From positions 1-64,000 of IMG/VR virus record IMGVR_UViG_3300007863_000001: a DNA stretch of 64,000 nucleotides; one strand, given 5' to 3'. The notes beneath the pieces were generated by a model that made no database searches, was not told the origin of the DNA, and saw nothing but the letters and a program-made list of their open reading frames with translations. The translations under genes were made by a program, and so were the position numbers. This document shows, in pieces, positions 3,024 through 25,700 of this stretch (position 1 is its first letter; each line of letters opens with the position of its first letter). The DNA is from a virus.

Positions 3024-3067
3024 GGGATAGAACCCCTCAAAAAGTTCTGTTTTTCACAAAACAGGAG
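3024..3067 (+). promoter_or_regulatory. Structured 5' leader: GGG/CCC hairpin plus a hairpin that sequesters the Shine-Dalgarno
   Basis: ttctgtttt (3045-3053) pairs with aaaacagga (3058-3066), covering AGGAG (3063-3067). agaac (3029-3033) can alternatively pair with gttct (3044-3048). Confidence 0.5.
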
Positions 3068-3263: not shown

Positions 3264-3659
3264 ATGTCAATAGAGGTTTCAAAAGCATTTAGAGATATTA
3301 GTTTATCTTTTGCTAAACATCCTGTAACCAATGATATTTTAATTCTTAAGAATGAGGATGCAGTTAAAAAATCTGTATCTAATATTGTAAGAACTTCATT
3401 AGGTGAAAGATTTTTTAATGTTAATTTTGGAACAAGTGTAAATGATTACCTATTTGAGAATACTACTCAAGATTTGGTATTTGCTGTAAGGGACGAAATT
3501 AGAGATGCCCTTGATAACTATGAACCAAGAATTAAAATTGATAGAATTGACGTTAATACTCCAGCAGACAGTAATGAATTGAATGTACAAGTTGTCTATG
3601 ACATTATTGGTCTAAGTATTTTACCACAAAAAGTAAATTTCATCTTATCACCAACTTAA
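3264..3659 (+). CDS. gp25: Baseplate wedge subunit / sheath initiator gp25
   Basis: GPW_gp25 motifs (AVKKSVSNIVRT..GERFF...FG, YEPRI); directly upstream of gp6. Confidence 0.92.
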   Translation: MSIEVSKAFRDISLSFAKHPVTNDILILKNEDAVKKSVSNIVRTSLGERFFNVNFGTSVNDYLFENTTQDLVFAVRDEIRDALDNYEPRIKIDRIDVNTPADSNELNVQVVYDIIGLSILPQKVNFILSPT

Positions 3660-3665
3660 AGTATA

Positions 3666-5553: not shown

Positions 5554-8500
5554 ATGTCATTAGAAATTAATAAGACTAAGGTTTCAATTCAAAATATAAT
5601 AGATGCCCAAATCCCATCATTTTTGAATGAGGATTCACCTCTATTCAGAGAATTTTTAAATCAATATTACTTATCTCAAGAGTATCCAACTGGATCAATA
5701 AATCTTGCGGATAATTTAACTGAGTTAAAAAATATTGAAACCTATAACAATGAATTATTTTTTACTGCATTTGTTCCATCTAAGTTAACTTCCAACTTAA
5801 GTGCATTTTCTACAACTATAAATGTATCTCATACAATAGGATTTCCTGAAAAGTATGGATTATTAAGAATTGGTAATGAGATAATTACATATCGGTCAAA
5901 GACATCAAATTCATTTATTGATTGTTCCAGAGGATTTAGTGGAGTTACTGATGTTTCAAGTCCTGTATTAACTTTTACTAAAACTGTATCTGAAGGCAAT
6001 GAACTTGATACAGAAGTACAGAACTTAAACTTAGTTTTTTATCAATTTTTATTTACAAAGTTTAAGGCACAGTTCCTTCCTGGATTTGAAAATAGGCAAT
6101 TTGTGCCAGAATTAAAAATTAAAAATATACTATCAAGAGCAGTAGATTTTTATACATCAAAAGGAACAGAAGTTTCATATCAACTTTTGTTTAATGTATT
6201 ATATAATAAAAAAGTTTCTATGATTCGTCCTCAAGAATTTATCTTGAGACCATCTGATGATAATTATTTCATAACTAATAATATCTTACTTGAGAAAGTT
6301 AGTGGTGGAGATCCATTTTCAATTGAAGGTAAGACATTATTTCAAAATGTAAGTGATTCTGCTGAGGCAAGTGCTTCAGTATATTCTGTTGAATATCGAC
6401 CAGTTAATGGAAAAGATTTTTATGAAGTTTACTTGGATAGTACTTCATTAACATTTTCTTTTCTAAGTACAAATAAAACAAATATATCAAAAAATGTATT
6501 ATCTACTAGTGATATATTATTTGTTGATTCAACTATTGGTTTTCCAAACCAAGGTACAGTTCTTTTAAAAGGTAAAAACACTAGTAATACTTTTATAGAA
6601 TTATCTTATAGTGGGAAAACAAATACTCAATTTTTGAATGTTACTGGATTAACTGTAGATGTTGAATATGGGGATGAAATTTTAGAATCTAATTTTGCAT
6701 ATTCTTATGATGATGACGATAATCAAATTAGATTTAGAATTGTTAGTGTTATTGGTGAAGTAGAATATGAAGAAAGTTCAAATTTATTAGTAAATGATAC
6801 TATTACTTTATCTTCTTTTGGTGCAGATTTAGGTAGCAGATCAGAATTCAATAGTTGGATTTATAATATTCCATCAGAGCATGATATAAAGGAAATAACA
6901 CTTTCTGCAGATGTCAGTGGAAATATATATAGTGTTCTTTTTTATGAGAACGTCGATTTTTACTTCGAGCAAGAAGTTAGTTTACGAAATCCAACTGATC
7001 CAAATGATATTGTTACTTATGGTTATGTGAGAAAAATATTAGAAAAGGATAGAGTAGAAATTTTCTCTAATCAAAATATTTTATCAAAAACATTAGTAAA
7101 GAAAGAAATATCTCTAGGTAAAAGTGAAAATAATAAGTTTGACTCGATAAAAAATATTCCAGTAGCAATTCAAAACTCATATATTGATACCAATAACGAG
7201 TTTTATTATGTATCTTCATCTGGTGTACCACAGTATGAAATTCACTCAGAAGTTCCAAAAGTATTTGTTTCTGCAAATGTTGTAAGTGGTGGGTCAACAG
7301 ATATTTTAGACACAGATAGAATACATAAATTCTATACTGGAGAAAAAATATATTACACTCCTACACAGAATTCTGGTATTGCAACAGGAGTTTATCATTT
7401 AACTGCTATTGGTAGTAATGCTGATAGTAGACAATTAAAACTCTCTCTTAGTAAAAGTGATTTATTTTCTAAAAAGTATGTTTCAACAATAATTAATATA
7501 TCTTCAGATAGTTTTGTTAAACTTGATTATGAAAACAAAAATATAGAAAATCAAAAAATACTTAAAAAGTTTAATTTAAATAAGAATAGTGATAGTTTAA
7601 AGGAAGTCGCATCAAGATCGACCAATAATAAAACTGTTGGTATGTTGGTTAATGGTGTAGAACTTTATTCACCAACATTATTTGATGAAAACATCTACTA
7701 TGGAAAATTAGATTCAATTGAAATAACAAATGCTGGTAGTGGTTATGATATCATTAATCCACCCCAATTAATGATATCTGACAGTACTGGTATTGGAGCA
7801 ACGGCATATGTAAATATTAGAGGAAAACTAGATGATGTAAGAATATCATCAGCTGGACTTGGATATCAAACAAAACCAAAAATTACTATTGTTGGTGGTA
7901 ATGGCACTGGTGCAGCAGTAGAACCAAATTTAGTAAAACGTGCAATATCTGCTACATTCAGGGGTGATGGAATTGGATTTAATTCTGTAGATAATACTAT
8001 TACATTCCAAACAAAACATAACTTTGACCCAGGTGAGGAAATTTTATATGATCCAAATTCCAATCCAGAGTGTTTGCCATTAAAAGCAAATTCTACTTAT
8101 TTTCCTGGTATAATAAATGATTACACAATTAAATTATACGAGACTGAAAGAGATGCTCTCACCCAACAAAATGAAATAAATTTACAGGGCATAAGTTCTG
8201 GTACACACACTTTTACTACACTAAAAGTAAGAAATACTATCACTAAAATTTATATAAAAGATAGTGGTAGTGGGTATTCAAATAAATCTATTAAAATTCC
8301 ATCAGTTTTAGCATTTGATGGTAAAACAAATGGTGTTAATACCTTTGATGATTATATTTTTGCAACAAATCACGGGTTTAAAGACAAAGATCTTTTGCTC
8401 TATTCTTCTACCCAAACAAATGTTGGTGGATTATCATCAGAAACAGAATATGTTGTAACTGTTTTAGATGAAAATAAGTTTAAGTTGTCTAGTACGGTAG

Positions 8501-11500
8501 TTGGTATTACTACAACTGGATACTCTAGTGTCTCTGAGACTGTAAAGTATCAAAATTATAGCAATAGAGTTTATGTAGGATTTTCTTCAATTGGATCAGG
8601 TGTTCATACCTTAAAATATCCACCCATAAGAGTTGAAGTAGAATCACTTTCTGGTATTGGATTAACAGTAATTTCTCCTGTATTTGAACCATTGGTTACT
8701 GGAAGTATTGAAAGTGTCTTCTTAGAGGATTCTGGAGTTGGATATGGTGTATCTGATATCTTTAATTTTCATAGAAGACCAACTGTTGTATTTAAAAATA
8801 TTGAATCCAAAGCTTTACTACGTCCCATTGTGGTGGATGGTTCAATTGTAGATGTCCAGTTCTTATCTTTTGGACGAGGATACAATGAAGGTATTGATAT
8901 TGTAGTTTCTGGTGATGGAAGTTTTGCTGATTTACGTCCAGTTGTTGAAAATGGTAGAATAGTAGACGTTACTATTTCAAATGGTGGTATTGGATACAAC
9001 CAAAATAATACCGAAATAACTATAGAAGAAAGAGGCAGGGATGCAAAATTTATTGCTAATGTAAATCAATGGAAAATAAATCAGGTAGTTAGAAATAAAA
9101 ACATATTAAACACTCCAGATGAAGGTGTTCTTGCACCAAGTACTAATACTAACTTAGGTGTAAGACTTATAAATTTCAATACACCAAAAATACTTAGAAA
9201 ATCACTTGGAGACCATATTGATGAAATATCAAATAGAGAGGTCTTATCAAATACACACTCACCAATTGTTGGATGGGCATATGATGGAAATCCAATTTAT
9301 GGTCCTTATGGAAAAGTAGGAAATCAGATTAAAAAGATAGATTCTAGTTATGAAACAAGAATTGAAAATAATACACAATTGAGACCAAATTTTCCAGAAG
9401 GATTTTTCATTCAAGACTATTATTACGATAGAGCTCTTGGTGATTTAGATGAATATAATGGAAGATTTTGTACTACTCCCGAATATCCAGATGGAATTTA
9501 TGCATATTTTTCAACAATTGATAGTAAAACACTATCATCACCAACTTACCCTTACATAATTGGGGAAAATTTTAAAGATTATATCATTGAAGAAAACTCT
9601 ATTCCATCATTTACTCATGATACTCAATTAGATAAATTAGATTTAATTAGAAATATTAGTCCATACTACATTAACTCAACATTTTCAAGATATCCACTGA
9701 TTTCAAACGTTGATAAAAAATATAAACAGGAATTTACAGTAACTACTACTTTATCTTCTGGAGTAGACTCTATTGATATTTTTTCACCTGGTGAAGGATA
9801 TAAAATTGGTGACAATATTATTTTTGACAATAAAGGTACAGGTGGAACAGGATTATCTGCAGAAGTATCAAGAATTAAAGGTAAAGAGTTAACTGAATTT
9901 GAAACTACAGTTGCTACATTTACTGATGTAAACTTTTCAACCAGAGGATCTACAGTTGTTGGAATTGCACAAACACCACATAACTTAGTTACTGGTGATA
10001 AAATTGTTATCTCTGAAATTTCGGATACAAATTATCAATACTTATCTGGTATAAAAGAAATCCTCGTACCACAAAAATCTGTTGGTATCGCTAGTACTGT
10101 TCCTGAAATTGGGATTACTGGATTAACAGTAACACTTTATGTTAAGGATATTGGAACATTTTTAGTTGATGATTATATTAAGATAGAAAATGAAACCCTT
10201 AAAATTATTGATATAATCCCTGAAGCATCTCAAATCATAGCTAATAGACTATCATCTACATCACAACATCTTGTAGGTACTGAGGTAAAACTTTTACCGA
10301 CAAGATTATATTTTAATGAAAAAGAGATTGATAGAAGAATTGCTCCAAACAATACTGTATATTTTAGTGCAAAAACTTTAATTGGTTTTGGTACACAAGC
10401 AAATAACTACAATTTATATAATAATCAAAACATAAATGTTCCATCAAGAGCAATTTATGTAAAGAATCATAATTTCCGTACAGGTCAAAAAGTAGATTAC
10501 AATGTTGGATTTGGTGGTACTAGTATAAATGTTTCATCTGAATCAAATGTATCTAATTTATTCCCACTACAGCAAGGTCTTATATCAGTAATCAATCTTG
10601 GTAGAGATTTTATTGGAATAACTACAAACATTTCTGGTATAGGAACTGGTTTAGAGTCACTGTACATATGGGATGACGTTTCTGTAACAGGTTCTGCACA
10701 CTCTTTTACTACTGTATATGATAATGTTACAGGAGTAGTTGAAAATTATAATTTAGAAATAACTACAGTTGAAAACCATGGGTTATCTGATGGTGATAAA
10801 GTTAAATTTAGTTTGATACCAGATGCTATAGATACATTTGCATTAAGATATGATACAAATTTAAGAAAAGTTACTACGGACATTCTTGATTTTGATGTTA
10901 ATGTTGCAGTTTCTGTAACTACATCAGAGGTTTATTTACCAAATAATACATATGAAACTGGAGATAAACTTGTTTACTATAAGGAAGTAGATGCTAATTC
11001 CTCACCAAACACTGGAATCGGTGGTCTGTCTGATGGTGAAACCTATTATGTATTAAGAGAAAAGAGAGATTATATAAAACTTTCAGAATCTCTAAAGAAT
11101 TCCACAGATGGTTCTTTTATAAACATATCATCCCAAGGTACTGGTATTCAAGGATTTGCATTAATTAATCCACCATTATATGCAACCAAGGGCAATAAAA
11201 TAAGATTCGATTTATCAGATACTTCTCTATCTGGTATGGATTTGGTGGTTTACAAAGATAGTAAATTACTTATCGAACTGGAAACGTATCGTTATAAAAG
11301 AAATAGTATTGAGGCTGGTTCTGACGATGCCAAGTTAGATATTATCACCACTGAGGACTACATTGGAAATACACTTTATTATAGTTTAATACCATTATCA
11401 CCAAGTGTTTCCGAAAAATATCAAATATCTTCAGATGATGAAGTGAATGGAAACAATCAACTTGTCATCAACGCAAGTGTTCTAACTCAAGAGTACCCAA

Positions 11501-13431
11501 TTGTATCAATAGCTAATACTTCATTTAGATTCAACTTATTGAGAAAACCAGAAAGTATTACTTATAATTCATCAAGTGGAATTAACACTGTATTTTATGA
11601 TACAAATTCAGTAAATGCAAGTGGTCCAATATCTAAAGTTAGAATTAACTTTGAAGGTAGAGGGTATAAGAAAGTACCTAAAGTAGATAGTATAGACACA
11701 GTTGGTGGTAGTAGTGCAATATTAAAAGCCACATCGTCCACTGTAGGTAAAATTGATAATCTAGAAAGAGTAAAAGATGGTTTTGATTATCCAACTGATC
11801 CAACTCTGAAACCAGTATTGAGTGTTCCTACAGTATGCCAAATAAAGGACATCTTTAGTGTAGGTTCTATTGGAATTGTAACTGGTGGAAATAATTACAA
11901 TGTTCCACCTACTTTAAAAGTTATTGGAAATGATGAAATAGAACTTGAAGCAAATATACAAGGTGGTTCTGTCGTAGATGTAATTATTGAGCAAAACGTT
12001 AAAAATTTATCTGGACCATTAAAAGTAGTACCAACAAGAAACTCTAATGGATATGACATTGATGATATTATCTATAATCCATTTCAGAATACGGTAACTT
12101 TAGAATTAGTTAATGCTGATACTCAAATTTTCCCTCTTATAACCAATGCTTTTGGTGATACTGAGATTGAGTTCCCATTTGAAGTTGGTGATTCTATTTT
12201 TATAGAAAATTGTAGAATTACTGATGTTTCTCGTGGAAGAGGATTTCTTGATTATAACTCATCTAATTTTGATTTTAGATTCTTTACTGTAACTGGAATA
12301 AGCACAGTAAACTTCACTGTTACTTATAGTATGGACGGTATTGGACTGAATATGGGTGACTACAATACAGATATTAATTTTGGATATGTAATTAATAAGA
12401 AAGATATGGCAGAATTTGAAATGGTTATTTCTGATGATCTTTCTTATATTTCTGGTGAAAATGTAGTTGGATATGATTCAAATAATAAAGTAGTATTTTC
12501 TGCTGTTGTTACTGAAAATGGATGGGATAATGATATTAATCAACTAAGATTAATAGATTCAAAAGGTGAACTAGAAGTTGCAAATAAACTTTTAGGAACA
12601 AGGTCTAGATTGAATGGAACAGTTGCAAATATTAATCAGTTTAATTTAAAATCAACTCTAAATGTCACTAGCAAAAGGGTAAATGATTTTAGAGATAATG
12701 CTGGATATTTAAATGATTTCCAACAAAGAATTTCTGATAATGATTATTACCAAAAGTTTTCATATGCATTAAAATCAGAATTACCATATGATTCTTGGAG
12801 TGAATCTGTAAGATCTCTCGTTCATCCATCTGGATATAAAGAATTCTCAGATTTAGATATTGTTGAAAAAGCATCAAATTCAATGAAGATTGATGTTGGT
12901 GATTCTTCACTGAGTGTAAGTGTGAGCATTGATTCAAAAGAGTCAATGTATAATAAGTACAACTTCAGTATGGTTACGGAAGAAGACTCTCTCCCAGACG
13001 GTAGTGTTGAAAGAATATTCTTCCCAGAGGGTGTAGACCTAACCCCATTCATCTTAAGTTTAACTAATAAAGTCATATCTATTGATAATATTAGTGACCA
13101 ATTTACTGGAATTTCAAGTGATATTGGTGGAACAATAGTTGGTTTAAGTACATTTAAGTTAAAAAATAATGGAGATTCGTTATTCTATAGAGAGTTTAAC
13201 TCTTCTGATTTCAATTTAGTTTCTATTGATAATAATAAATTTTCTTTAACAAATCATAATTATCAGACAGGGCAAAGAATATTCTATGATGTTCAAGAAT
13301 CTGATATCGACCCATTAGGTTCAGCAGTTACTATAGTTGATTTAAACTATCAAGCACCAAATGTTTCTCGGAATTTTGATAGTCCAATATTCACATTTGA
13401 CACGGACCAGTTAAGTTTCGATCAAACTTAA
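5554..13431 (+). CDS. gp7: Baseplate wedge initiator gp7 (giant cyanophage form, N-terminal part), with an embedded YHYH-like segment
   Basis: N-terminal FREFL.QYY and DFYTSKGT..SY..LF; YHYH-like HSPIVGWAYDGNPIYGPYG...DLDEYNGRF at about 9250-9570; DNDYYQKFSY and LVHPSG motifs; follows gp6. Confidence 0.82.
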   Translation: MSLEINKTKVSIQNIIDAQIPSFLNEDSPLFREFLNQYYLSQEYPTGSINLADNLTELKNIETYNNELFFTAFVPSKLTSNLSAFSTTINVSHTIGFPEKYGLLRIGNEIITYRSKTSNSFIDCSRGFSGVTDVSSPVLTFTKTVSEGNELDTEVQNLNLVFYQFLFTKFKAQFLPGFENRQFVPELKIKNILSRAVDFYTSKGTEVSYQLLFNVLYNKKVSMIRPQEFILRPSDDNYFITNNILLEKVSGGDPFSIEGKTLFQNVSDSAEASASVYSVEYRPVNGKDFYEVYLDSTSLTFSFLSTNKTNISKNVLSTSDILFVDSTIGFPNQGTVLLKGKNTSNTFIELSYSGKTNTQFLNVTGLTVDVEYGDEILESNFAYSYDDDDNQIRFRIVSVIGEVEYEESSNLLVNDTITLSSFGADLGSRSEFNSWIYNIPSEHDIKEITLSADVSGNIYSVLFYENVDFYFEQEVSLRNPTDPNDIVTYGYVRKILEKDRVEIFSNQNILSKTLVKKEISLGKSENNKFDSIKNIPVAIQNSYIDTNNEFYYVSSSGVPQYEIHSEVPKVFVSANVVSGGSTDILDTDRIHKFYTGEKIYYTPTQNSGIATGVYHLTAIGSNADSRQLKLSLSKSDLFSKKYVSTIINISSDSFVKLDYENKNIENQKILKKFNLNKNSDSLKEVASRSTNNKTVGMLVNGVELYSPTLFDENIYYGKLDSIEITNAGSGYDIINPPQLMISDSTGIGATAYVNIRGKLDDVRISSAGLGYQTKPKITIVGGNGTGAAVEPNLVKRAISATFRGDGIGFNSVDNTITFQTKHNFDPGEEILYDPNSNPECLPLKANSTYFPGIINDYTIKLYETERDALTQQNEINLQGISSGTHTFTTLKVRNTITKIYIKDSGSGYSNKSIKIPSVLAFDGKTNGVNTFDDYIFATNHGFKDKDLLLYSSTQTNVGGLSSETEYVVTVLDENKFKLSSTVVGITTTGYSSVSETVKYQNYSNRVYVGFSSIGSGVHTLKYPPIRVEVESLSGIGLTVISPVFEPLVTGSIESVFLEDSGVGYGVSDIFNFHRRPTVVFKNIESKALLRPIVVDGSIVDVQFLSFGRGYNEGIDIVVSGDGSFADLRPVVENGRIVDVTISNGGIGYNQNNTEITIEERGRDAKFIANVNQWKINQVVRNKNILNTPDEGVLAPSTNTNLGVRLINFNTPKILRKSLGDHIDEISNREVLSNTHSPIVGWAYDGNPIYGPYGKVGNQIKKIDSSYETRIENNTQLRPNFPEGFFIQDYYYDRALGDLDEYNGRFCTTPEYPDGIYAYFSTIDSKTLSSPTYPYIIGENFKDYIIEENSIPSFTHDTQLDKLDLIRNISPYYINSTFSRYPLISNVDKKYKQEFTVTTTLSSGVDSIDIFSPGEGYKIGDNIIFDNKGTGGTGLSAEVSRIKGKELTEFETTVATFTDVNFSTRGSTVVGIAQTPHNLVTGDKIVISEISDTNYQYLSGIKEILVPQKSVGIASTVPEIGITGLTVTLYVKDIGTFLVDDYIKIENETLKIIDIIPEASQIIANRLSSTSQHLVGTEVKLLPTRLYFNEKEIDRRIAPNNTVYFSAKTLIGFGTQANNYNLYNNQNINVPSRAIYVKNHNFRTGQKVDYNVGFGGTSINVSSESNVSNLFPLQQGLISVINLGRDFIGITTNISGIGTGLESLYIWDDVSVTGSAHSFTTVYDNVTGVVENYNLEITTVENHGLSDGDKVKFSLIPDAIDTFALRYDTNLRKVTTDILDFDVNVAVSVTTSEVYLPNNTYETGDKLVYYKEVDANSSPNTGIGGLSDGETYYVLREKRDYIKLSESLKNSTDGSFINISSQGTGIQGFALINPPLYATKGNKIRFDLSDTSLSGMDLVVYKDSKLLIELETYRYKRNSIEAGSDDAKLDIITTEDYIGNTLYYSLIPLSPSVSEKYQISSDDEVNGNNQLVINASVLTQEYPIVSIANTSFRFNLLRKPESITYNSSSGINTVFYDTNSVNASGPISKVRINFEGRGYKKVPKVDSIDTVGGSSAILKATSSTVGKIDNLERVKDGFDYPTDPTLKPVLSVPTVCQIKDIFSVGSIGIVTGGNNYNVPPTLKVIGNDEIELEANIQGGSVVDVIIEQNVKNLSGPLKVVPTRNSNGYDIDDIIYNPFQNTVTLELVNADTQIFPLITNAFGDTEIEFPFEVGDSIFIENCRITDVSRGRGFLDYNSSNFDFRFFTVTGISTVNFTVTYSMDGIGLNMGDYNTDINFGYVINKKDMAEFEMVISDDLSYISGENVVGYDSNNKVVFSAVVTENGWDNDINQLRLIDSKGELEVANKLLGTRSRLNGTVANINQFNLKSTLNVTSKRVNDFRDNAGYLNDFQQRISDNDYYQKFSYALKSELPYDSWSESVRSLVHPSGYKEFSDLDIVEKASNSMKIDVGDSSLSVSVSIDSKESMYNKYNFSMVTEEDSLPDGSVERIFFPEGVDLTPFILSLTNKVISIDNISDQFTGISSDIGGTIVGLSTFKLKNNGDSLFYREFNSSDFNLVSIDNNKFSLTNHNYQTGQRIFYDVQESDIDPLGSAVTIVDLNYQAPNVSRNFDSPIFTFDTDQLSFDQT

Positions 13432-13433
13432 AC

Positions 13434-13441
13434 CATAAATA
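13434..13441 (+). promoter_or_regulatory. T4-type late promoter
   Basis: CATAAATA, 21 nt before the ATG at 13463. Confidence 0.6.
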
Positions 13442-13462
13442 AAAGTAAATGTGTAGTGCATA

Positions 13463-16180
13463 ATGGCGAAGCAAGCAATAGGCATAGGAAGTTTACCCAA
13501 TGATGGAGGGGGTGATAGCCTTAGAGATGGTGCTATTAAGCTCAATAGCAATTTTAGTGAAATCTATACTGCTTTAGGTGATGGAAACACCATAACAAAC
13601 TCCATTGCTTTTGCATCTGTTGCTGGGGTTTCAACCCTTTCTGATTATGCAACTAATGCAGGCATTGCTACTTTTTCAACTACTTCTGGATTTACTAGTT
13701 TCACTACAAATGCTGGTCTTTCTAGTGTTGCTGATTATGCTACTGTTGCTGGATTGGCAACAAATGCCACCTATGCAGATACATTAATCAATTCCCCAAA
13801 TATTATTGTTGGTGTTATAACAGCATCAAGATTTGTTGGAGATGCATCTTATGCCAGTGGTATAGTTACTACACTAGTTGCTGGTTCTAATGTAAATATT
13901 GAAAGAACTGGTGGAATCGCAACAGTTAGTGTTGCTGGAGGTGGAGGTGGAGGTGGATTTGGTGTTGCCTCCCAGTGGTTAGACACACTTTCTGGCATTA
14001 CCACTAGTTCCATAGTTGGTATCGGCACAACTGTACCTGATGTTTCTAGTCAATTGCATGTAAAAGGTGGCAGAATCAACGTCACTGGAGTTTCTGCTGG
14101 CAATGAAGCATTACAAATAGAGAATGGAGTAAAGATAAACTATGGTACATCTGGTGCTTCAATTTACTATGATTCAGTTGACTTAAGAATTGATACAAAT
14201 TCATCTATTAGGATGAGTGATGGTGTCAGGAACGTATTTACCGCAACTGCCGGTGGTGGATCTGAATTATTCTTTGATGGTTCCAGAAAATTCACGACCA
14301 CACAAATTGGTGGTCAGGTTGATGGAACTTTAAAAGTTGCTGGTCTTACCACCACGAATGCATTATATTCTGTAGGAGATATTACTGCTGCAGGGTTTAT
14401 CACAGCAACAACTTATTATGGTAATGGTGGTAATTTAACTGGAATTGTAACCACATTAGTTGGTGGTTCTAATGTAAATCTTACTTTAGATGGTGGTCAG
14501 GTAACAATTGACGTAAACTCTGATTCTGTTTGGAATGGAAATGCCACTGGCATTAATACTTTAGGAAATATTGGAATTGGAACTACAACTGCATCACACA
14601 AATTAACCGTTGTTGGTGAGTCTTCATTTGATGGTGCAGTAGGATTTACTAGTGATATTACACTTTCCTCAGGAAGAATTGAAGTTCCTGCATCAAGCAA
14701 TATAAAAATTGGAGCAGATATTATTGGGTCTGGGAGTTCAAGAAATATTGGTCTTGGTGATAGGGCACTCTCAACATTAAGTAGTGGTGGTGGTCATAAC
14801 ATTGCAATCGGTGATTTGTCTGGACAGACATTCTCATCTGGTCAGTATAATATTACCATTGGTGATAGATGTGGTCGTGAAATGACGACTGGTGATTATA
14901 ATGTTATTTTAGGTGGTTTTAATGGTCAGAACTCTGAATTAGATATTAGAACATCAGATAATAACATCGTATTATCTGATGGACAAGGAAATGTTCGTTA
15001 TTTTGTAGACTCAAACGGAAAAACTGGTATAAACACTACCATTACACCAGAAGCACTTAATGTTCTTGGTATTGTTTCTGCAACAGGTTTCTATGGTCAA
15101 ATAAATGCAGAGCAACTGACTGGAGTTCTTCCAATTATTGATGGTAGTAATTTAACAGGGGTTACTGCTGTTGGTTCTGGTATTGAATTGGAAAATAATG
15201 GGTCTAGTATTGGTGTTGCTGCAACAGTTAACTTTAGTTCCAATTTAGATGTTTCTCTGAGTGCAGGTACTGCTACAGTATCCGTTTCCGATTTAAGTAT
15301 CACCGATTTGAATGTAAGTGTTGCATCAACACTTGGAGTTGCTGATGCAACACAACTGACTGTTTCCGGTGTTGTAACTGCAACTACATTCAGTGGTTCG
15401 GGTACTTCACTCACTACACTTAATGCATCTGAACTAAGTTCAGGAACTATTCCTGATGCCAGATTCCCAGCAACTCTTCCAGCAGCATCTGGTGCATCAT
15501 TAACTTCACTTAATGCATCAGAACTAAGTTCAGGAACTATTCCTGATGCTAGATTCCCAGCAACATTACCAGCAGCATCTGGTACAAACTTAACTAATCT
15601 ACCATCATCACAACTAACTGGTGCTCTACCAGCAATTGACGGTTCTGCATTAACTGGCATTGTTGCATCAGGTACTGGTATTGCAATTGAAAGTAACGGA
15701 TTCCCTGTAGGGTCTGCTACCACAATTGATTTGGGAGCAGGATTATCAGTTGAGATTAGTGGTGGTATTGCTACAGTCACTGCATCAGGTGGTTCTGGTG
15801 GTTCAAGAGTAGTTGTATCTGGTACAACTACTTCTATTACAGATGAGAGTATCGGTAATATAGATATAACAGGATATAAATCTTATGCATTAATGCATGT
15901 TGGTCTATCAACCGCAGGTTGGATACGACTATATACTGATAGCACATCAAGAGCAAATGATATTAATAGAGGTCTTGGGAATGACCCAACACCTGGCAGT
16001 GGGGTGATTGCTGAAGTTGTAACTACTGGAATTTCTACAGAACAAATAGTTTCTCCATTCACAATGGGTGGTAATCTGATGGATCCAGCAAATACAACAA
16101 TATATGCATCAATTAAAAATCTTTCTGGTTCAACTCAAACTATTACAGCAAACCTAACAATTCTCCCACTGGAGGCTTAA
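13463..16180 (+). CDS. Virion fibre protein with a gp9/gp10-like N-terminal baseplate anchor
   Basis: MAKQ.IGIG..PNDG.GDSLRDG..KLN.NFSEIY anchor; Gly/Thr-rich fibre repeats. Confidence 0.75.
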   Translation: MAKQAIGIGSLPNDGGGDSLRDGAIKLNSNFSEIYTALGDGNTITNSIAFASVAGVSTLSDYATNAGIATFSTTSGFTSFTTNAGLSSVADYATVAGLATNATYADTLINSPNIIVGVITASRFVGDASYASGIVTTLVAGSNVNIERTGGIATVSVAGGGGGGGFGVASQWLDTLSGITTSSIVGIGTTVPDVSSQLHVKGGRINVTGVSAGNEALQIENGVKINYGTSGASIYYDSVDLRIDTNSSIRMSDGVRNVFTATAGGGSELFFDGSRKFTTTQIGGQVDGTLKVAGLTTTNALYSVGDITAAGFITATTYYGNGGNLTGIVTTLVGGSNVNLTLDGGQVTIDVNSDSVWNGNATGINTLGNIGIGTTTASHKLTVVGESSFDGAVGFTSDITLSSGRIEVPASSNIKIGADIIGSGSSRNIGLGDRALSTLSSGGGHNIAIGDLSGQTFSSGQYNITIGDRCGREMTTGDYNVILGGFNGQNSELDIRTSDNNIVLSDGQGNVRYFVDSNGKTGINTTITPEALNVLGIVSATGFYGQINAEQLTGVLPIIDGSNLTGVTAVGSGIELENNGSSIGVAATVNFSSNLDVSLSAGTATVSVSDLSITDLNVSVASTLGVADATQLTVSGVVTATTFSGSGTSLTTLNASELSSGTIPDARFPATLPAASGASLTSLNASELSSGTIPDARFPATLPAASGTNLTNLPSSQLTGALPAIDGSALTGIVASGTGIAIESNGFPVGSATTIDLGAGLSVEISGGIATVTASGGSGGSRVVVSGTTTSITDESIGNIDITGYKSYALMHVGLSTAGWIRLYTDSTSRANDINRGLGNDPTPGSGVIAEVVTTGISTEQIVSPFTMGGNLMDPANTTIYASIKNLSGSTQTITANLTILPLEA
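15419..15600 (+). repeat. Intragenic tandem repeat, 90-nt (30-aa) unit x2
   Basis: LNASELSSGTIPDARFPATLPAASG at 15419 and 15509 with near-identical DNA. Confidence 0.9.
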
Positions 16181-16187
16181 TTAACAA

Positions 16188-18149
16188 ATGGCAATTTCTA
16201 CACATAGAGTCACGATAAACCCTCAGGATTTATCATCATATACTAAAGAAGATGTTCTAACACAGTTAGAAGATGGAATATCATGGTTGGGATGGCATGG
16301 TGATAGTCTTAGTGGATTAGTCTGTGGAGTTACCTCATTTACTGGTGGTGGAAGTATTACAGATGAAACCGTCTTCAATTATGAAGACGTTTATCCAATT
16401 GCAACAACTGGTATTGGAACAGGTGCATCATTTTTCGTAGCAAGAGGTAAGGGAGAAGTTGGATATGTTGTTGCAAATAGACCAGGTAAAAATTATGTTC
16501 CAGGTGACACAGTAACGTTATCAGCAGAAGACATTGGTGGTTCTGCAAATGGTGCTACAGATATTACAGTAAGACTTACAATTGCTGGTGAAGCAACTGG
16601 TGGTCTTGGATATGGTATCACTCTTACTGGAACATATGAAACAGAAGGGGCAGATAGGAACGGATTTGTTACAGGTAATGATGCGACTATAACGATTAAA
16701 GAGGGTGATACTCTTACTCTTGAAAATTATATGTCAAGTAGTAGTTATGAAGTCAATATTATTCAAAGTGGAGCACACTTTAGCAAAAATTATAGACATA
16801 CTAATAGTAGTGATTATAAAGTTGGATATTATGATGGTTTAATTCATAACGTTATAGGAAATAATGATACAAGTAGCAATAGTGGTGGTATAACTAGATT
16901 CAAACCTTTACCTGGACAGAGAGGAACATACTTTGTTGTTGATAATGGCGGTGATTTCGCATCATTTACTCCAAAAATTGTAGTTCAACCAGCTACTTCT
17001 GGTATTACTACCTTTAGTTATGGTTCAACTGCATCTTACTATGCAAAGGACACTTCAGGTAGTTATCCTTGGGCTTGTTGGAGACACGTTGTCCAGGATA
17101 ACAAAAAATTTGGAGACACATATCGTGTCTTTGGTATGGTAAACTCAACTCAATATTTAACTACTTGGGCTGGTTCTGGATTTTTCCCAGCTAGTTTTAA
17201 TAGCACTGATACTAATTCATATCAGTATGGTTCTGGACATGCAAGGAATTTTAGATTAGCAGGACTAGAAAATGCTGATATATCAGCATATGATATATTC
17301 GACGAGCAGTCATCACCAGAGGATAGTATGACTGGATTTGAGTATATTAGTCAAGGAAGCAGAACTAGCACAGCATACAAAATAGATACTGGTGGATCAA
17401 CTAGTCGTCAATTAGACTTGAATATATTTAAGTCTGGTATTGACCCAAGATTTGCAGTCTTTTCATATACTAAACCAACACAATCAGCAACTAAACTAAG
17501 AGATAGAACATTTGGTACATTCTTTTTCCACAATTTTGAATCAACAATCTGGGATTATGATGATCAATTTTTGAGTGGACTTACTCATATAATACCAAGT
17601 GACGATGATAATCGTGCAGGACTTACATTTAGAACATTTTTAAATGGAACTTCCTATTACTACGGCAGTAGTAATAAGAGATATCCAGCAAAAAGAAGTG
17701 CTGAATTTGGATATTCTACAGTAGATGATAGTAACAGTAATTCACCGAGTGAGCACTATCATGATTCTTGGATAGACACGTTTTATCAGACAAATACTGA
17801 TAATGAAACTGTAAACCCTGGAACTGTAAAAATTTACTATAGAGATTCAACGGCAAGAGGTAGATCATATACAAATCAGAGTGGATATGCCATTAATAGA
17901 TTATCAAGTGACTTAGATTTCAATGCTGTAATTAAAGGAATACCTTTAAATGCAAGAATCATGCCTGTTCCATATTACATACCTGATGATTTTGTTTTAA
18001 TTGATTTTTACTACAATGTATCAGGTGTAAACATTCAGCAGGGAGATACAATTTCAATTAGTGGTTCTGAGCAGTATACAGTTATTCAGGGTTCATATCG
18101 TCAAACTGGTGGAACATATGGTGTTCTGTTCTGCGGAAGGGTTGTGTAA
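16188..18149 (+). CDS. Putative virion structural protein
   Basis: Long ORF in the late cluster; G.GASF.V / PG.NY..GD.VT repeat shared with the baseplate proteins; its stop overlaps the next start. Confidence 0.65.
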   Translation: MAISTHRVTINPQDLSSYTKEDVLTQLEDGISWLGWHGDSLSGLVCGVTSFTGGGSITDETVFNYEDVYPIATTGIGTGASFFVARGKGEVGYVVANRPGKNYVPGDTVTLSAEDIGGSANGATDITVRLTIAGEATGGLGYGITLTGTYETEGADRNGFVTGNDATITIKEGDTLTLENYMSSSSYEVNIIQSGAHFSKNYRHTNSSDYKVGYYDGLIHNVIGNNDTSSNSGGITRFKPLPGQRGTYFVVDNGGDFASFTPKIVVQPATSGITTFSYGSTASYYAKDTSGSYPWACWRHVVQDNKKFGDTYRVFGMVNSTQYLTTWAGSGFFPASFNSTDTNSYQYGSGHARNFRLAGLENADISAYDIFDEQSSPEDSMTGFEYISQGSRTSTAYKIDTGGSTSRQLDLNIFKSGIDPRFAVFSYTKPTQSATKLRDRTFGTFFFHNFESTIWDYDDQFLSGLTHIIPSDDDNRAGLTFRTFLNGTSYYYGSSNKRYPAKRSAEFGYSTVDDSNSNSPSEHYHDSWIDTFYQTNTDNETVNPGTVKIYYRDSTARGRSYTNQSGYAINRLSSDLDFNAVIKGIPLNARIMPVPYYIPDDFVLIDFYYNVSGVNIQQGDTISISGSEQYTVIQGSYRQTGGTYGVLFCGRVV

Positions 18150-19720
18150 TGGCAGATTTTAGTTTTTCTGGGTTAGATGGTGCAGTTGCAGCAGGATTAA
18201 CCACTAAAATTCAAAGTGAAGAAATAAGTTTTGATGGTGCGAGTTTAGATAATGTTGTACTTAATATTGATGGAGTATATGGACCAATTGGTAGTGCAGT
18301 AACTTTTATTCCCGATCAAGGTTCATCAAGAACTGATTTTAATTTATCCAATGTTGTTCGTGAAGAAGTTGATTTTATACCAACATTAGTTTTTAATGGA
18401 AATACTTCAAGTGGTATTGAAACATCATCAACTTCAATTGTTGAAGAAGGTTTGGTGTTGTATTTAGAATCTACGAATTCCTCTTCTTACGGTGGTGCTG
18501 GCAATACTTGGACAGATATAAGTGGACGTGGAAATGATGCAACATTAATTGGGAATTATTCTTTCGCAAATTCCCAAATGATTTTTACCGATAATGGGTA
18601 TGCAAGAATTCCAATAGATCCAGATTTTGATTTAATTGGTGATTTTGCATTTGAAACTGTTGTTTATATGACAGGAACTCCAGATTCAACATATCCATCT
18701 GGGTTAATTTCATGTTGGTCTGAACTAGACGATGGAAATAGAAATAATTTTCTTCTTGCGGTTAATAGTTCAAGACAAGTTTTTGTTCAAATGAATAATA
18801 ATTCATTGTTATTAACACATCCAACTCCTCTTGATTTAAATCGTTGGCATCATATTGTATTTACTAGAAGAGGTTCTACAGTAGAATTATATATTGATAG
18901 TGTAAAACACTCTTTAGGGACAACATCATATTCTGATAATGTCTTGATGAGACGTGACCATCTAGAAATTGGAAGATATTCTGCATCTTCTGGTCAATCG
19001 TTTGAGGGTTCTATCCCAGTCGTAAGGATTTACACTGGAAGAGGATTATCATCTCAGGAAATATATGAAAACTCTAGAACTATTCCATATTACCCAAACA
19101 AAAGGTTGAATTTAACTGACGGCAAATTTACTATTGAAACTTTGCTTTATTGGTCTGGTTTATCACCTAGTGATGTTGCTGGAATAATTCTTGCACAAGA
19201 TCCTAGTGATGGGATAAATCCAATGAATTTTAGATTTAGGATAAGAGATAGTTTAAAAAGGGCGCAGTTCCAGTATCAAACTACAGCATCAAGATCCAGT
19301 ACACAGACATTGCACTCTGGAAGTGTTCAATTAGTAGCAAACTCATGGAATCACATTGCTGTTACTTATGATACCGTCACTCTAAGAATGTATATTAATG
19401 GTGTATTAGTTTCTTCTGCAGTAAGAACATTATACACAACTGAGGGTGTGTCAACTACAATTGGAGACTCTATAGATAATGATGAGCACCTATATGGAAA
19501 AGTTTCATATATACGTGCATATAAAGATAGGTGTTTTGATGATTATGAAGTCTTCTCTAATGCTAATAAATTATATGTAAGAGACTCAGTAGAATCAGAA
19601 GGTACAGTTAGTGTTGGTGTGGCAACAGACCTTGGTGTCACGGGAGCAATTCCTGGATACCTGACAGGTAGAAGACCAATAACAGGTTTAGTATTTCCTC
19701 GTGGTGTTTACAACAAGTAA
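18149..19720 (+). CDS. LamG/concanavalin-A-like lectin domain virion protein (two LamG domains)
   Basis: GLVLYL...SY.G.GNTWTDISG.GN; WHHIVFTR...LYID; WNHIAVTYD...MYING. Confidence 0.8.
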   Translation: MADFSFSGLDGAVAAGLTTKIQSEEISFDGASLDNVVLNIDGVYGPIGSAVTFIPDQGSSRTDFNLSNVVREEVDFIPTLVFNGNTSSGIETSSTSIVEEGLVLYLESTNSSSYGGAGNTWTDISGRGNDATLIGNYSFANSQMIFTDNGYARIPIDPDFDLIGDFAFETVVYMTGTPDSTYPSGLISCWSELDDGNRNNFLLAVNSSRQVFVQMNNNSLLLTHPTPLDLNRWHHIVFTRRGSTVELYIDSVKHSLGTTSYSDNVLMRRDHLEIGRYSASSGQSFEGSIPVVRIYTGRGLSSQEIYENSRTIPYYPNKRLNLTDGKFTIETLLYWSGLSPSDVAGIILAQDPSDGINPMNFRFRIRDSLKRAQFQYQTTASRSSTQTLHSGSVQLVANSWNHIAVTYDTVTLRMYINGVLVSSAVRTLYTTEGVSTTIGDSIDNDEHLYGKVSYIRAYKDRCFDDYEVFSNANKLYVRDSVESEGTVSVGVATDLGVTGAIPGYLTGRRPITGLVFPRGVYNK

Positions 19721-19733
19721 TAAGTAATAAGAA

Positions 19734-22700
19734 ATGACAACTAGAGTAATTCCAGGTTCAGGTGCAGTATTTACACCAAATTTTGATGCTGAATATCGTG
19801 TTACATCATTTACGATACTTGATGGTGGTACTGGATATGCGAGTACAGACCCTCCTAAAATTGAAATATTAGGAACTAGAACTCCACTTGAGGAGGGTTC
19901 TTTTTATCCAATTATTGCTAATGGTAAGATTACTCAAATTGCTATATTGAATTCTGGAAGAGGATATTTTCCAGTTGAGGGGACATCAGATACAAAAGTT
20001 GGAATTGTTACTACAGAATATGTTGAAAGTTCATTAAAAGTAACTAAATTCGATTCAAATAATAATCCTTATGTCTCAGTTGCATCAACTGAGTCTCATG
20101 TTGTAATGCATGTTACTTCAGGAAAAGGAAGTGCTATTTTTGAGAATGGATATAATCGTACTATTGATCAATCTGGATATTCTGGAGTAACTGCTCCAAT
20201 AACACCAAATTATTCTGGGCAACAAAATAGATTTTGGGGATTTTTCAATCCATTCCCATCTTACTTCACAACTGGTCTTGGCACTGACGCAAAATTCAAT
20301 GCATTCATTGTTTATGATTCCTTTACTGGTGATGCAATATCAACTTCATTAGTATTAAGGTCTGGTGGTCAAAAATATTCAATTGGAGATCAAGTTTCAA
20401 TATCTGGAACATATTTTGGTGGTAACACTCCAGCAAATGATATATCATTTACAGTTTCAACTACAACTAACACAAGAATTGGTTCTGAAGCAAATAATAG
20501 TTATGTTGGAGTTCCTGGTGAAACAATATCAGGAATTGGTTCTGGTGTAATTTTAACTCTCACAAGAGACCAATTGGGTGATATTGATGAAATAGAAGTC
20601 ACCAATGGTGGTGCTGGTTATGCATTAACAAGCACCATTGGTGTTTCTGGAACTTTCATCGGTGGTTCTACACCAGGAGATGATTTAAAGTTATCTCCAG
20701 AAGTTTTGGGTGCAAATACACTACCACCAGTCTCTTACATCCAGAAGACCGATGATAATGGATTTAGAGTTAGTGGATTATCAACTACTTCTCCATTTAT
20801 AACATTAAGAAGTTATGGTATTGGAACTCATTCATTTAATTTCGAGAATCCAAATGCAAGTTCAATTATTCTAATTGATAATATTATTCAAAGTGCTCTA
20901 TACAGAAGAGATTTAAATAGAACACTAACACAGCCAATTGGCATTAAAACAACAACTATACATTTAAGTGGAATCACCTCAATAACCTCTTTAGATACAA
21001 TTCAAGTTGATTCTGAATACTTTGATGTTAAGGATGTCGGATTAAATGGTCCTAATACAGTTGAAGTTGTTAGGGGTACGATGGGTTCCGAGGTTGGTTA
21101 CCACACGGTTGGAGCAGCAGTTACTGTCCTTAGAGGAGACTTTAACATCATTAGGGATGAGATTAATTTTAAATCTGCACCTTTTGGTCCTATTGGACCA
21201 GATGGATTAGAAATTAACTCATCCTTTAATGGAAGAATGTTCTCAAGACAAGTTGATTATGGAAATCAACCAAATGATAAAAACGTTGTATTTGATGATA
21301 TTAGCACAAAGTTTGTTGGGGCATCATCAACAGAGTTTTTCCTAGAAAGTAATACTCAACCACTGGTTGGCATTTTTACTGATACATCGGCAGTTTTAGT
21401 TGGTGGTATTGATGTAAACTTAAATCCATTAGTTCTCATCAATAATGTATCACAGATTTCAGGAACAGATTTTGATATTGATAACGATAGACTACAATTA
21501 GAAAAAGGAAATAGAATCAAATTTTTAACAGGAACTCCAGGTGCTGGAAAAATTTCAAGAACAACCAATAACAGTGGATTGGGATATCAGAGACTTGTTG
21601 GAGCAGGTGGAACAATAGTAGTTGGAGCAGGTGGAACTATTGTTAGTATTGATATACAACAATTTGGTAGTGGGTATAGAACAGCACCAGAAGTTCAAGT
21701 TATATCAAATGTTGGTAGTGGAGCATCATTAGTTGCAAATATTGGTGCAGGTGGAGTTATTACCTCTATTGATATAATTGAATCTGGAACTGGTTATGTT
21801 GAACCAAGATTAAAAGTCGATATTCCTATTAATTATAGTGATATAGAACTTGAGTATGCAACATCACCACCAGGTGAGGGAATTGGTGCAAGAGCATCTG
21901 TTGTAGTTGGAAATAGGGGAGATATTATTGGTTTTGAAATGGAAGAACCTGGAATATATTATAAGATTGGAGATAGATTGAAGTTCCCAATAACAGAATT
22001 ACTACCAAGTACAGGTATATCCACAGTAAATGTTATTGCTCTTTCTTATGAAAATACTACAGGTCTTACCACAGTATTCACAGATACTGCACATGGATTA
22101 ATGCCAGATGACTATGTGAGGTTGTCAGGAGTTGCAATGACTTGCGAATCTTGGACAGGATTTACAACATTTACAATCAACAGCTTCAATTATGAACCGT
22201 CTGCTGGTATTTGCACTATAACAACCGAAATACCTCATGGATTACCAGAGGGTGACTATATTCAGTTGGAGGAAATTAATTTAACGTGTATATCTGAGTA
22301 TACTGGTATTACTTCAACTGTTTTCCCATATCCAGCAGGAATTAACACCTTTGGTAATACATACCCACAAAGTAGTCCAAATACTCTTGGTGGAACATAT
22401 AATGTATTCAGATCTATAGCAGGTACATCAGGGACAACTATCGTTTTCAATGCTGGTGTTTCTACCATAACTCATCTTTATGATCCAGGTAGTTTTATTC
22501 AAAATGTAACACCAACAGATGCTTATTATGACCCACTAAGTGGTGAATTTACAGTCACTTCTGTTGGGCATACAGTGACTACTAATAATAGAATTCAACT
22601 GTTGGAGGGTGGATTTGCATTCACATGTTCGATGGATAATAATGTCACTGAGCATTATTTACCAGAAAGTGATCACTTCGCAATAGGAAGATTGCTTCAG

Positions 22701-25700
22701 GTAACTGGAGTAACCACAGATACTTTCACAGCATATGTTGGTGCTGCTGGTCCAGGAGATTTTTATACCCCATCAAATGCCTCATACAATACAAGTACTG
22801 GAGATATTACTCTCACATTAGGAAATCATAATGTTTCAATTGGTGATACTATCTTTATACGTGATAGTGCTTTGACATTTACTTGTGATATGGATTCCAA
22901 CCAGGCACAAAAAACTTATCCCCGTCCTGGAATTGATCCATATGCAAACAAAGGAATCGAAGTTACAGGAGTTGCGGGAACAACAGTAACAATAAATGTT
23001 GGATCTGCAGGAACGGATAGATTCTATACACCTTCTGATGCTGATTATAATCCAGTAACAGGTGATTTAACTGTTACTGTAGGACAACATGGACTAGGTG
23101 TTGGTAGAAATGTAGTTCTTGCAGATAATTCGTTTACATTTACATGTGCGTTAGATGGACATGGAACACAACACAATTATCCCCGTCCTGGTATTGATCC
23201 CTATGCAGGAAAATCAATACCAATTACGAATGTTGGATTAACAACTCATACAGTAACTAATGCGGTTTATAATGCAACTGTAGGTGTTGTTTCTTTCACC
23301 GTTCCAAATCACGGATTTAGTAATAGTGATTATGTAAAAGTAGATGATAATTCACTACTGTTTACATGTGATCTTGATGGAAATACAGCAATTAAGGCAT
23401 ATCCAAGACCAAATTATGATTTCCCAAGTGGTAGATGGATGATTATCAGTAATTCAACAACTGATACTTTTGAAATTAATGTAGGACCATCAACATATAC
23501 AGGTAATCATACATTTGTGAGTGCCGATCCTTACAGTCTCGAAAGGCAAGATGGAACATTTACAATTAATGTGGGTACAGGGGGGACAGATACTAGTGAA
23601 CATACTTTCGTTACTGCTTCATTAAATGCAATTGAATATACCCCACAATCTACACATACATTTGTAAGTGCATTAACAAACTCAATAGCAAGAAATCCAG
23701 AAAGATATTTCACCCCATCTGATGCAACTTATAATCCAATTTCTGGTGATGTAGTTTTAACAATTGGAGAGCATCCATTTACAAAAGGTGAAGGAATTGT
23801 ATTAAGACCAAATTCATTATCATTTACTTGTGATATGGACAATAATCAGTCCGTTAAATCATATCCACGTCCTGGTATCGACCCATATGCAGCAAGATCA
23901 ATTCCAGTTAAAGATTTTACATCAACAACAATTACTTTAAATGTTGGTGTTTCTGGACCAAACAGATATTATACTCCAACAGATGCAAACTACAATCCAT
24001 CTACTGGTAATTTAACTGTCACTGTAGGTCAACACGGATTAGGTGTAGGAAGAAATGTTGTTTTAGATGACAATTCATTCACATTTACTTGTGATTTAGA
24101 TGGTAATTCTACACAACATACTTACCCACGTCCTGGAAGTGATCCTTATGCAGGACGTTCTATAGAAATTATACAAGTAGGTCTAACTACACACACTGCG
24201 ACTGATGCACCTTACAATGCAGTAACTGGAGTTGTTACACTAGAAGTTACTGGTCATGGATTTAGTAATGGTGATTATGTATTAATTGAAGATAATTCAT
24301 TGAGATATTCTTGTGATTTAGATGGTCATTCTCAATGGAAATATTACCCAAGACCAAATTATGATTACCCAAGTGGAAGATGGTTAGCAATTTCAAATGT
24401 AACCACTGACACTTTCGATATTAATGTTGGTGAATCAAGTTATACAGGAATTCATACATTCATAAGTGCAACTACTGATGGAATTAAGAGACAGGATGGA
24501 ACATTTATAATGTATGTTGGTACTGGTGGAACAGACACTAGTAATCATACATTTGTAAGTGCATCTACAAATGCTATTAAGCATGAACCACAGTCAAATC
24601 ATACTTTTATTGCTGGAATTCCATATTCAGTAAGACAAGATATACAAGCACCTCATACTTTTGTCAGGTCTTCAGATGATGCTATTTCTGTCTATAGTTA
24701 TAATGGAACTGCAACAATAGGTATTACTTCAACTGTTTTCCCATATCCAGGAGCAAGTTACAACACTGTTGGTGATACATTCGATGTATTCACTGCACTA
24801 GAAGGAACAGAAGGGACAACTGTCGTATTAAATGCTGGAATTTCAACTATTGCACATACCTATGACTTTGGTGGAACAATAACAAATACACCTTTCACTG
24901 AATTTGAAGTAGTTGTTGATGAATCAATGACTGATAAGTTTAGTGGTTTCTATCCAGGTCAGTTTATACAATTTGATGATGTCTCAAGATTATTCAACGG
25001 AAGAAAAAGAAAATTCACTTTAACAGTTACTGAAGGAAATGAAACCAAAATCTTAAGTTTAAAGACTAAAAAAGAATCTGATATGAGAATGGAAAACAAT
25101 TTATTCGTTTTCGTTAATGATGTATTGCAGCAACCATATTATTCATACATTTGGAATGGTTCTAGAATTGTATTTAAAGAGGCACCTTTAAGAAATTCCA
25201 AATGTACTATATTATTCTTCAGAGGTTCTGATTTAGATGTTATTCAGATAGATCCACCAGAAACAATCAAAGAGGGTGATGTTGTTCAGATTGGTGAGAA
25301 TAAATTTGACCCAATTGATAGAGAACAGTTTGAGAGAGTTGTTAAGAAAATTATTTCTACAGATACCTTAGATACATTTACTTATGATAGTCTTGGAATT
25401 AATACCGATCCAAATAAAGAAAGACCAGTAAGATGGGAAAAACAAACCCAAGATAAAATTATTAATGGTGTCTTGTATTCTAAAGCAAGACCAAGTTTAC
25501 GTTCTAGAGTTGCTCCAATTACTAGACTCATTAAATCAGTTGAAGAAGATGATATTGAAATCTACGTAAATAATGCTTTTCCATTATTTACTGATGTTGA
25601 TAAATTACAGGAAAGTTTGAGAAATATAAAAATTGTTGATGACGGAGAAATAGAACCAGCAATAGTTCAATCAACAGTTTCAACAACATCTTCAATAGAA

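Follow-up and report, generated by a model that had tools for sequence, protein, structure and literature searches.

In the first 64 kb of the 99,692-bp IMG/VR virus record IMGVR_UViG_3300007863_000001 (CheckV completeness 52%), which comes from an uncultured marine cyanobacterial virus and is called here the window, we observed that the giant gp7 gene of a T4-like cyanophage baseplate module is present as two separate pieces with whole genes between them. The products of the upstream piece (gp7N, 5554-13431, 2625 amino acids (aa)) and of the downstream piece (gp7C, 19734-27494, 2586 aa) are colinear with gp7 proteins that relatives make as a single chain. The break interrupts a small beta domain (D1), is inherited within one clade, and is occupied by a gene cassette of a type that is also found at other positions of gp7. 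We consider it fairly probable that gp7 underwent an inherited fission by this cassette and that the two fragments rejoin in the baseplate, helped by two sequences that flank the cassette genes, namely a C-terminal tail on gp7N and an 86-aa leader domain (modA) on gp7C. All features from gp6 to gp8 located in the window below lie on the + strand.

Two pieces of one gp7 and the break between them

Both pieces are homologous to annotated gp7 proteins along their length. On the profile of cyanophage gp7 (phrog_2885, 4179 profile positions), gp7N covers positions 7-2546 and gp7C positions 3372-4050, and gp7N is about 41% identical, over 96-98% of its own length, to the gp7 of S-SSM7, Sf-FS3 and S-SCSM2R. 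When phage genomes were searched with tblastn, a single 3884-aa open reading frame (ORF) of S-CAM9 matched gp7N 9-2579 and then gp7C 325-2585, with a gap of only 21 codons between the two matches. S-SCSM2R contains, between gp6 and gp8, a single gp7 of 5172 aa that is colinear with gp7N plus gp7C, and single-chain gp7 proteins of 4369, 4386, 4387 and 5331 aa (the last from locus L015) are encoded in IMG/VR contigs. In a profile built from six single-chain gp7 proteins, positions 3-69 correspond to gp7N 2525-2593 (E 2e-24) and positions 73-738 to gp7C 118-807 (E 1.4e-188), a match of the two half-domains that is far above chance; gp7C stays colinear down to the conserved C-terminal end of gp7 (..YSWGKIYDYQNR..GLST.P.V.RTR). 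These complementary matches indicate that gp7N and gp7C are pieces of one protein. A first-pass annotation, made from the sequence of this DNA, had proposed that an ancestral gp7 of more than 5000 aa was split at a domain loop, and had suggested a BLAST-type search for a colinear single-chain homologue. Such homologues exist in S-CAM9, S-SCSM2R and the IMG/VR contigs, those of S-SCSM2R and L015 spanning both pieces with more than 5000 aa, and the sequence comparison supports an ancestral single chain cut at a domain loop.

In single-chain proteins D1 reads ..F.I.NHNFQTGQELIY..GSPIGIATTSYV.., then about 200-230 aa, then ..LP..FVYKLNDN.FK.SGLSTS...GTG.HS. The 200-230-aa stretch is a nested insert, since S-CAM9, S-8S56 and DSL-LC02 do not have it; it is present in the single-chain loci L009-L016, in S-SCSM2R and in gp7N of S-SSM7. 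The break of the window falls at the loop that already holds this insert. The first-pass annotation had noticed that the last copy of a repeated gp7 domain stops after its first half at 13293, and that an orphan second half lies at 20712-20837. The peptides on which it relied are where it placed them, intact paralogous copies of the domain do occur at about residues 821 and 1638 of gp7N, and both observations stand in substance. However, gp7N has 45 aa more beyond 13293, gp7 homology resumes already at residue 88 of gp7C (nucleotide 19995), and the half-domains had been described without the tail, the duplicated strand, the modA leader and the nested insert.

gp7N contributes D1a (..KFSLTNHNYQTGQRIFYDV), the first strands of the broken domain, at residues 2556-2580 (13219-13293). 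They match positions 2-26 of S-CAM9 D1 and belong to the gp7N region that reaches position 69 of the single-chain profile. After the end of these strands at ..RIFYDV, the 45 remaining aa consist of a degenerate version of the following D1 strand, with PLGSAVTIV in place of the consensus PIGIATTSYV (13312-13338, aligned to profile positions 63-69), and of 30 residues followed by the stop codon. These 30 residues (DLNYQAPNVSRNFDSPIFTFDTDQLSFDQT, 13339-13428) represent the tail, which is of the cassette type. In ten split relatives it has a constant length and its alignment is free of gaps; the consensus reads [FY]..P..S..[FL]D[SN]P...FD[ST].

On the other side of the break, gp7C opens with modA (residues 1-86, 19734-19991), which matches the N-terminus of phrog_708 (E 2.9e-22). 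Neither modA nor the tail is part of single-chain gp7 at this point, so that both fragments have terminal sequences that the unsplit protein lacks there. Homology to gp7 resumes with the strand KVGIVTTEYVE (19995-20027); in the alignment to single-chain sequences, G90, I91 and T94 are invariant and A92, T93, S95, Y96 and V97 nearly invariant (at least 90%). The strand is followed by a stretch of about 20 residues specific to the split lineage (SSLKVTKFDSNNNPYVSVASTES, 20028-20096), which has no counterpart in the aligned single-chain proteins, and by the nested insert, here of about 200 aa in two sub-domains (20097-20708), as defined by alignment with single-chain relatives. The second half of the domain (D1b, residues 326-367, 20709-20834) matches positions 45-87 of S-CAM9 D1, inside a match of gp7C 325-744 to S-CAM9 2624-3043 (E 1.6e-53). 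The next small domain (D2, 20976-21143), located by alignment, is intact in the window and split in the phages of S-SSM7 type described below. No direct repeat flanking the cassette was found at the DNA level, where the best local score was no better than that of shuffled sequence. A MAFFT alignment had hinted that the tails could be decayed remnants of a duplicated downstream stretch; this idea was dropped, because the tail is not matched by the single-chain profile and hhalign against intact D1 is confident for the hairpin alone.

A further variable slot is visible just upstream of the break. In single-chain relatives, the positions equivalent to gp7N residues 2521 and 2525 are separated by 290-520 additional aa (for example 2526-2816 in L009, 2519-3036 in L015), and this stretch is absent from the window (13120-13218, gp7N 2523-2555) and from its split relatives. 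Two other gp7 genes are interrupted in a different way. In DSL-LC02 (OR032571.1; L103:391-396), gp7 is annotated as two adjacent coding sequences with no inserted gene, parted by a single stop codon in frame and one additional codon, after which the next ATG follows; the stop precedes D1 (NHDF at residue 265) by about 130 codons and may reflect an error in sequencing, a nonsense mutation or read-through. In the otherwise single-chain IMG/VR gp7 of L060, two long ORFs in different frames overlap by 94 nucleotides (L060:7930-8023), probably as the consequence of a frameshift error, because the near-identical L036 reads through.

Inheritance of the break and recurrence of the cassette

With an alignment of the D1-D2 region, 80 IMG/VR loci were recovered. 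In 12 of them an ORF starts 80-91 aa before the match, that is, with modA and then the strand; the others read through, L060 with the apparent frameshift just mentioned. A second census, seeded from modA, added contigs and brought to about 27 the number of IMG/VR contigs that carry the D1 break with tail and leader. One relative, IMGVR_UViG_3300028196_000027, is 83-86% identical to the window and shares with it both gp7 pieces and all three inserted genes; a 10-kb contig with 99% identity contains the end of gp7N with its tail and the first two inserted genes, after which the contig ends. A hidden Markov model of the tail found 24 ORFs, in each of which the match ends exactly at the C-terminus. 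Among the cultured phages of the phage collection none has a window-type tail. Two trees were calculated, from 312 columns downstream and from 913 columns upstream of the break. In both, the split sequences form one side of a branch with 100% support in the Shimodaira-Hasegawa-like approximate likelihood ratio test (SH-aLRT), a result compatible with a single origin of the D1 split. The split is inherited and is not an artefact.

The cassette has the layout tail, fibre gene with an N-terminus of gp9/10 type, zero to three further genes, and modA. Every cassette examined opens with a gene whose N-terminus reads MA[KR].GI.TG..PNDG.GD.., which is the anchor of T4 gp9/gp10 (PF07880). In the window this is the fibre-like cassette gene 1 (13463-16180, 905 aa), whose residues 3-46 match the family with E 1.1e-7 and 32.5 bits as compared to a cut-off of 25; its N-terminus is 47-48% identical to those of the connector genes of S-SSM7 and Syn9. 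In S-SSM7, S-SSM6a, Sf-FS3 and about 20 IMG/VR loci (S-SSM7 type), gp7N is about 350 aa longer, D1 is intact and the chain ends inside D2, with ..DDELVKINQIGDTT plus a 44-aa tail, and gp7C consists of modA followed directly by VVVERGAFGT..; in S-SSM7 and Sf-FS3 the D2 break of gp7N is at ..KINQIGDTT and gp7C resumes at VVVERGAFG. Between the window and this type, identity is 47% for the connector N-terminus and 55% for modA. The two tail alignments were compared with hhalign, which gave an end-to-end match over 39 of 44 columns with a score of 22.9 (P 7e-5), as compared to 8.2 ± 1.8 (maximum 14.1) for 60 column-shuffled controls, and by this profile comparison the window tail is probably homologous to the S-SSM7-type tail. 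A third variant is represented by protein P0037 and by its relative L145, a 3.3-kb contig from the metagenome scan. In this variant modA lies upstream of an intact D1, and the genes before it are a homologue of cassette gene 2 of the window (653 aa) and a gene of 76 aa. The unit of tail, gp9/10-type gene, zero to three genes and modA is thus found at at least three positions within about 450 residues of gp7.

The modA leader is a GxGY-repeat beta domain with paralogues inside gp7. In 296 cyanophage records it is encoded at the start of the gene that comes after a gp9/10-like gene, and in the window its only strong match is the leader of gp7C. In a family of small proteins of 225-244 aa (P0018, P0026 and P0034), modA is followed by ..TAVGIASIG.., which resembles the D1 strand PIGIATTSYV and could be the microhomology through which modA was joined to gp7.

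Proposed rejoining of the fragments

According to the explanation that we favour, the cassette sits in the coding sequence of D1, at the loop already used by the nested insert, and has two coding arms, a C-terminal tail of about 40 aa upstream and the beta-rich 86-aa modA downstream. Between the arms lie the fibre gene with its anchor of T4 gp9/gp10 type and, in the case of the window, two further genes. In the T4 structure the N-terminal core of gp7 forms a bundle with two copies of gp6, (gp6)2-gp7. Both gp7N and gp7C would be built into the baseplate wedge and rejoined there non-covalently. The hairpin of gp7N may complete the D1 barrel of gp7C; if D1 is re-formed in trans, tail and modA would both leave the same cut loop, side by side, and could hold the fragments together. 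This would amount to a fragment complementation assisted by interaction modules, in which the cut loop serves as a slot for swapping accessory fibre or lectin genes.

Conservation around the break was measured as mean pairwise identity across 14-15 split relatives. It is 0.63 for the D1a hairpin, 0.61 for D1b, 0.64 for modA, 0.63 for the nested insert and 0.54 for the tail, and only 0.25 for the loop that follows the hairpin. The strand that is present on both sides of the cassette has an identity of 0.79 in gp7C and of 0.39 in gp7N. In the S-SSM7-type phages the orphan first half of D2 has an identity of 0.72. Half-domains as well conserved as folded domains, together with decay of the redundant strand alone, are what trans-complementation predicts. 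A model of gp7C 1-480, calculated with AlphaFold2 from a 36-row alignment, has a mean predicted local distance difference test score (pLDDT) of 62; the score is 70-82 in modA, which is modelled as beta strands, 63-84 in the nested insert and 67-83 in D2, and it is exactly the D1 pieces (82-154 and 324-375) that fall below 50. Judging from the conservation and the model, the re-forming of D1 in trans is plausible. Foldseek gave nothing meaningful for this model against the PDB, and sequence searches of the PDB with the repeat region of gp7N and with the D1-D2 profile gave no match. A clamp made of tail and modA is a reasonable model by analogy, because the tails that an insertion gave to the split NrdA of phage Aeh1 (see below) are essential. 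A broader version, which we regard as possible but clearly more tentative, is that the cassette is a portable unit of structural genes with its own docking pair, tail and modA, which cuts gp7 inside different domains, rejoins the fragments and makes of the loop an exchange slot for host-recognition genes.

Several observations weigh against the assisted rejoining of gp7N and gp7C. The contact between the two chains is a predicted one. In P0037 and L145 an intact D1 stands behind modA. An incomplete domain would account for the low pLDDT of the D1 pieces, which has, however, no single-chain control beside it, and the model of the C-terminal 225 aa of gp7N (22-row alignment) has a pLDDT of 33.7 and is unusable. 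When profiles were searched against sequences, the relation between the two tail types was marginal (E about 0.7), the matches being colinear to within 3 residues of the C-terminus. The protein that modA heads in Syn9, S-MbCM6 and ACG-2014d has about 1150-1390 aa; its gene lies after a gp10-like gene, and it shows no colinearity with the C-terminus of gp7. For this reason modA may dock elsewhere than on gp7N. Finally, when the trees are rooted on S-CAM9, the split, S-SSM7-type and single-chain groups form a trichotomy. This trichotomy is compatible with separate insertions as well as with relocation of one cassette.

The chains might instead be joined by the split D1 alone, as the first-pass annotation had it, tail and modA having no role in joining. 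This would agree with the conservation of D1a and D1b in the split clade while the redundant gp7N strand decays, with the low confidence of precisely the D1 pieces in the gp7C model, and with the S-SSM7-type break, which is also in-domain and has a conserved first half. It leaves unexplained, however, why a conserved tail of fixed length and a conserved modA are found wherever the cassette sits, and a hairpin of two or three strands would be a weak anchor for a chain of 2586 aa. Moreover, since D1 is intact behind modA in P0037 and L145, D1 complementation is not a general requirement, and the existence of this variant is the reason why we rank the module-assisted model above a pure split-domain model, which we regard as unlikely.

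The behaviour of modA in Syn9, S-MbCM6 and ACG-2014d, where it always comes after a gp9/10-like gene, and the small modA proteins of 225-244 aa would also suit a gp7C that does not rejoin gp7N at all. In that case gp7C would work by itself as a baseplate or fibre protein, with modA as its anchor on another partner, for example a gp9/10-like trimer or gp8, and D1a would be kept by packing on the preceding domain and the tail. An independent protein would hardly be expected to keep the whole C-terminal architecture of single-chain gp7 with its conserved end, nor to have as its best-conserved element the strand beside the break (0.79), and orphan halves are kept at two different in-domain breaks. 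We think it improbable that gp7C acts on its own.

The trichotomy and the strand copy on both sides of the cassette would allow the opposite direction of change, with a two-gene state ancestral for the group and single-chain genes derived from it by precise loss of the cassette, for example by recombination between the strand copies. But the D1 family has intact copies elsewhere in gp7, so that a fission was necessary at some point in any case; the outgroup is single-chain, and no repeat is left at the DNA level. This polarity is very unlikely. Mis-assembly, a pseudogene, or a product restored by protein trans-splicing or ribosomal bypassing, for none of which any evidence was found, is hardly credible in view of about 27 independent contigs in which the long ORFs are intact and the junctions are the same, of the absence of Hint or intein domains in Pfam scans, of the nature of modA as a repeat-type beta domain, and of a 6.3-kb gap that holds three conserved genes.

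Cassette genes, gene neighbourhood and known systems

As the first-pass annotation had stated, the genes between the two pieces are three and separate. Cassette gene 2 (16188-18149, 653 aa) has no match in Pfam or PHROGs and is not assigned to a family; its homologues (MAIT...LFCGR.V) occur in other split loci. It is 57.5% identical to its copy in the closest relative, L008, as compared to 80-88% for the neighbouring genes, and may encode a fast-evolving host-contact protein. Cassette gene 3 (18149-19720, 523 aa) contains two LamG domains (Laminin_G_3, E 7.6e-34). These look like an insertion into a very small protein, because the same N-terminus (MADF.F..L) and C-terminus (GYLTGRRP..GL.FPRG.YNK) also frame proteins of 76-86 aa in relatives (L108:9651-9986 and L145:1513-1743). 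The content of the slot is very fluid: a sub-lineage with the same break (L120:3131-9973) has four cassette genes, of 578, 161, 1036 and 406 aa, and others with the D1 break have a single one of about 590 aa.

The window has the gene order expected for the baseplate module of a T4-like cyanophage, namely gp25, gp6, gp7N, three ORFs, gp7C, gp8 and a DUF4815 giant. gp25 (3264-3659) was identified with Pfam and PHROGs, as were the two baseplate wedge genes that flank the gp7 pieces. Upstream, gp6 (3666-5552; Gp6-like_1st E 1.8e-15, Gp6_C-I; phrog_219 E 1e-189) directly precedes gp7N and, downstream, gp8 (27529-29097; Phage-Gp8 E 3.6e-12; phrog_438 E 5e-156) follows gp7C, which is the position of a T4-type gp7. 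No T4-type late promoter (TATAAATA) was found between gp6 and gp8, and for this reason the gp7 pieces are probably co-transcribed.

The closest parallels are in the S-SSM7-type phages S-SSM7, S-SSM6a and Sf-FS3, which share the order gp6, gp7N, gp9/10-like gene, modA-gp7C, gp8, with homologous modA and connector N-terminus, a probably homologous tail, and a break that is also in a small domain. They differ in that the break is about 350 aa further on, in D2 and not in D1, and in that the cassette has one gene of about 340 aa. In GenBank the S-SSM7 genes SSSM7_101 and SSSM7_103 are both labelled gp7. The giant single-chain gp7 of S-SCSM2R and S-CAM9 has the same domains and the same position between gp6 and gp8, but is one polypeptide with intact D1 and D2 and has no tail, cassette or modA at this place. 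Giant ORFs fused to gp7 were noted in P-SSM2 and P-SSM4 (Sullivan et al., 2005; PMC1079782), and our literature searches found no description of gp7 fission, of the in-domain break points, or of tail or leader. A practical consequence concerns annotation: the protein entered for these phages as a 'second gp7' or as a 'hypothetical 1600-3000-aa protein' is in fact gp7's missing C-terminal half. If tail and modA are indeed the glue, they would be a natural and transferable pair for joining proteins, and fibre genes could be exchanged at the cut loop while the baseplate core stays undisturbed, with a bearing on the host-range evolution of Prochlorococcus and Synechococcus phages.

The fractured genes described by Dassa et al. 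(2009; PMC2677866), which have split inteins and contain a nested endonuclease gene, resemble the present case, since there too an independent ORF interrupts a gene whose two parts need rejoining. In those genes, however, the parts are rejoined covalently, whereas no intein motif was found here and, as no Hint domain was detected, the arrangement is not that of an intein.

A nearer relative in mechanism is the NrdA of Aeromonas phage Aeh1 ('genes in pieces'), in which the NrdA-a and NrdA-b fragments reassemble non-covalently and the tails produced by the mobE insertion are essential for the activity of the split enzyme (Crona et al., 2010; PMC3045599). In both cases a gene of a T4-type phage has been cut by inserted DNA and has acquired new C- and N-terminal tails. 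The Aeh1 insert, however, is one homing endonuclease gene, mobE, in a gene for an enzyme. Here the insert is made of one to four structural genes; as no nuclease family was detected among the three inserted genes in Pfam or PHROGs, it is not a homing endonuclease insertion. Of its two arms one, modA, amounts to a complete folded domain, the cassette occurs at several places in gp7, and reassembly would be expected by analogy. In phages, an enzyme interrupted by a selfish endonuclease has provided a demonstrated case of gene fission with non-covalent reassembly. In the window it is a virion protein of more than 5000 residues that is cut, by genes that probably serve host recognition; a whole clade of abundant marine cyanophages has inherited this cut, which recurs elsewhere with the same flanking modules.

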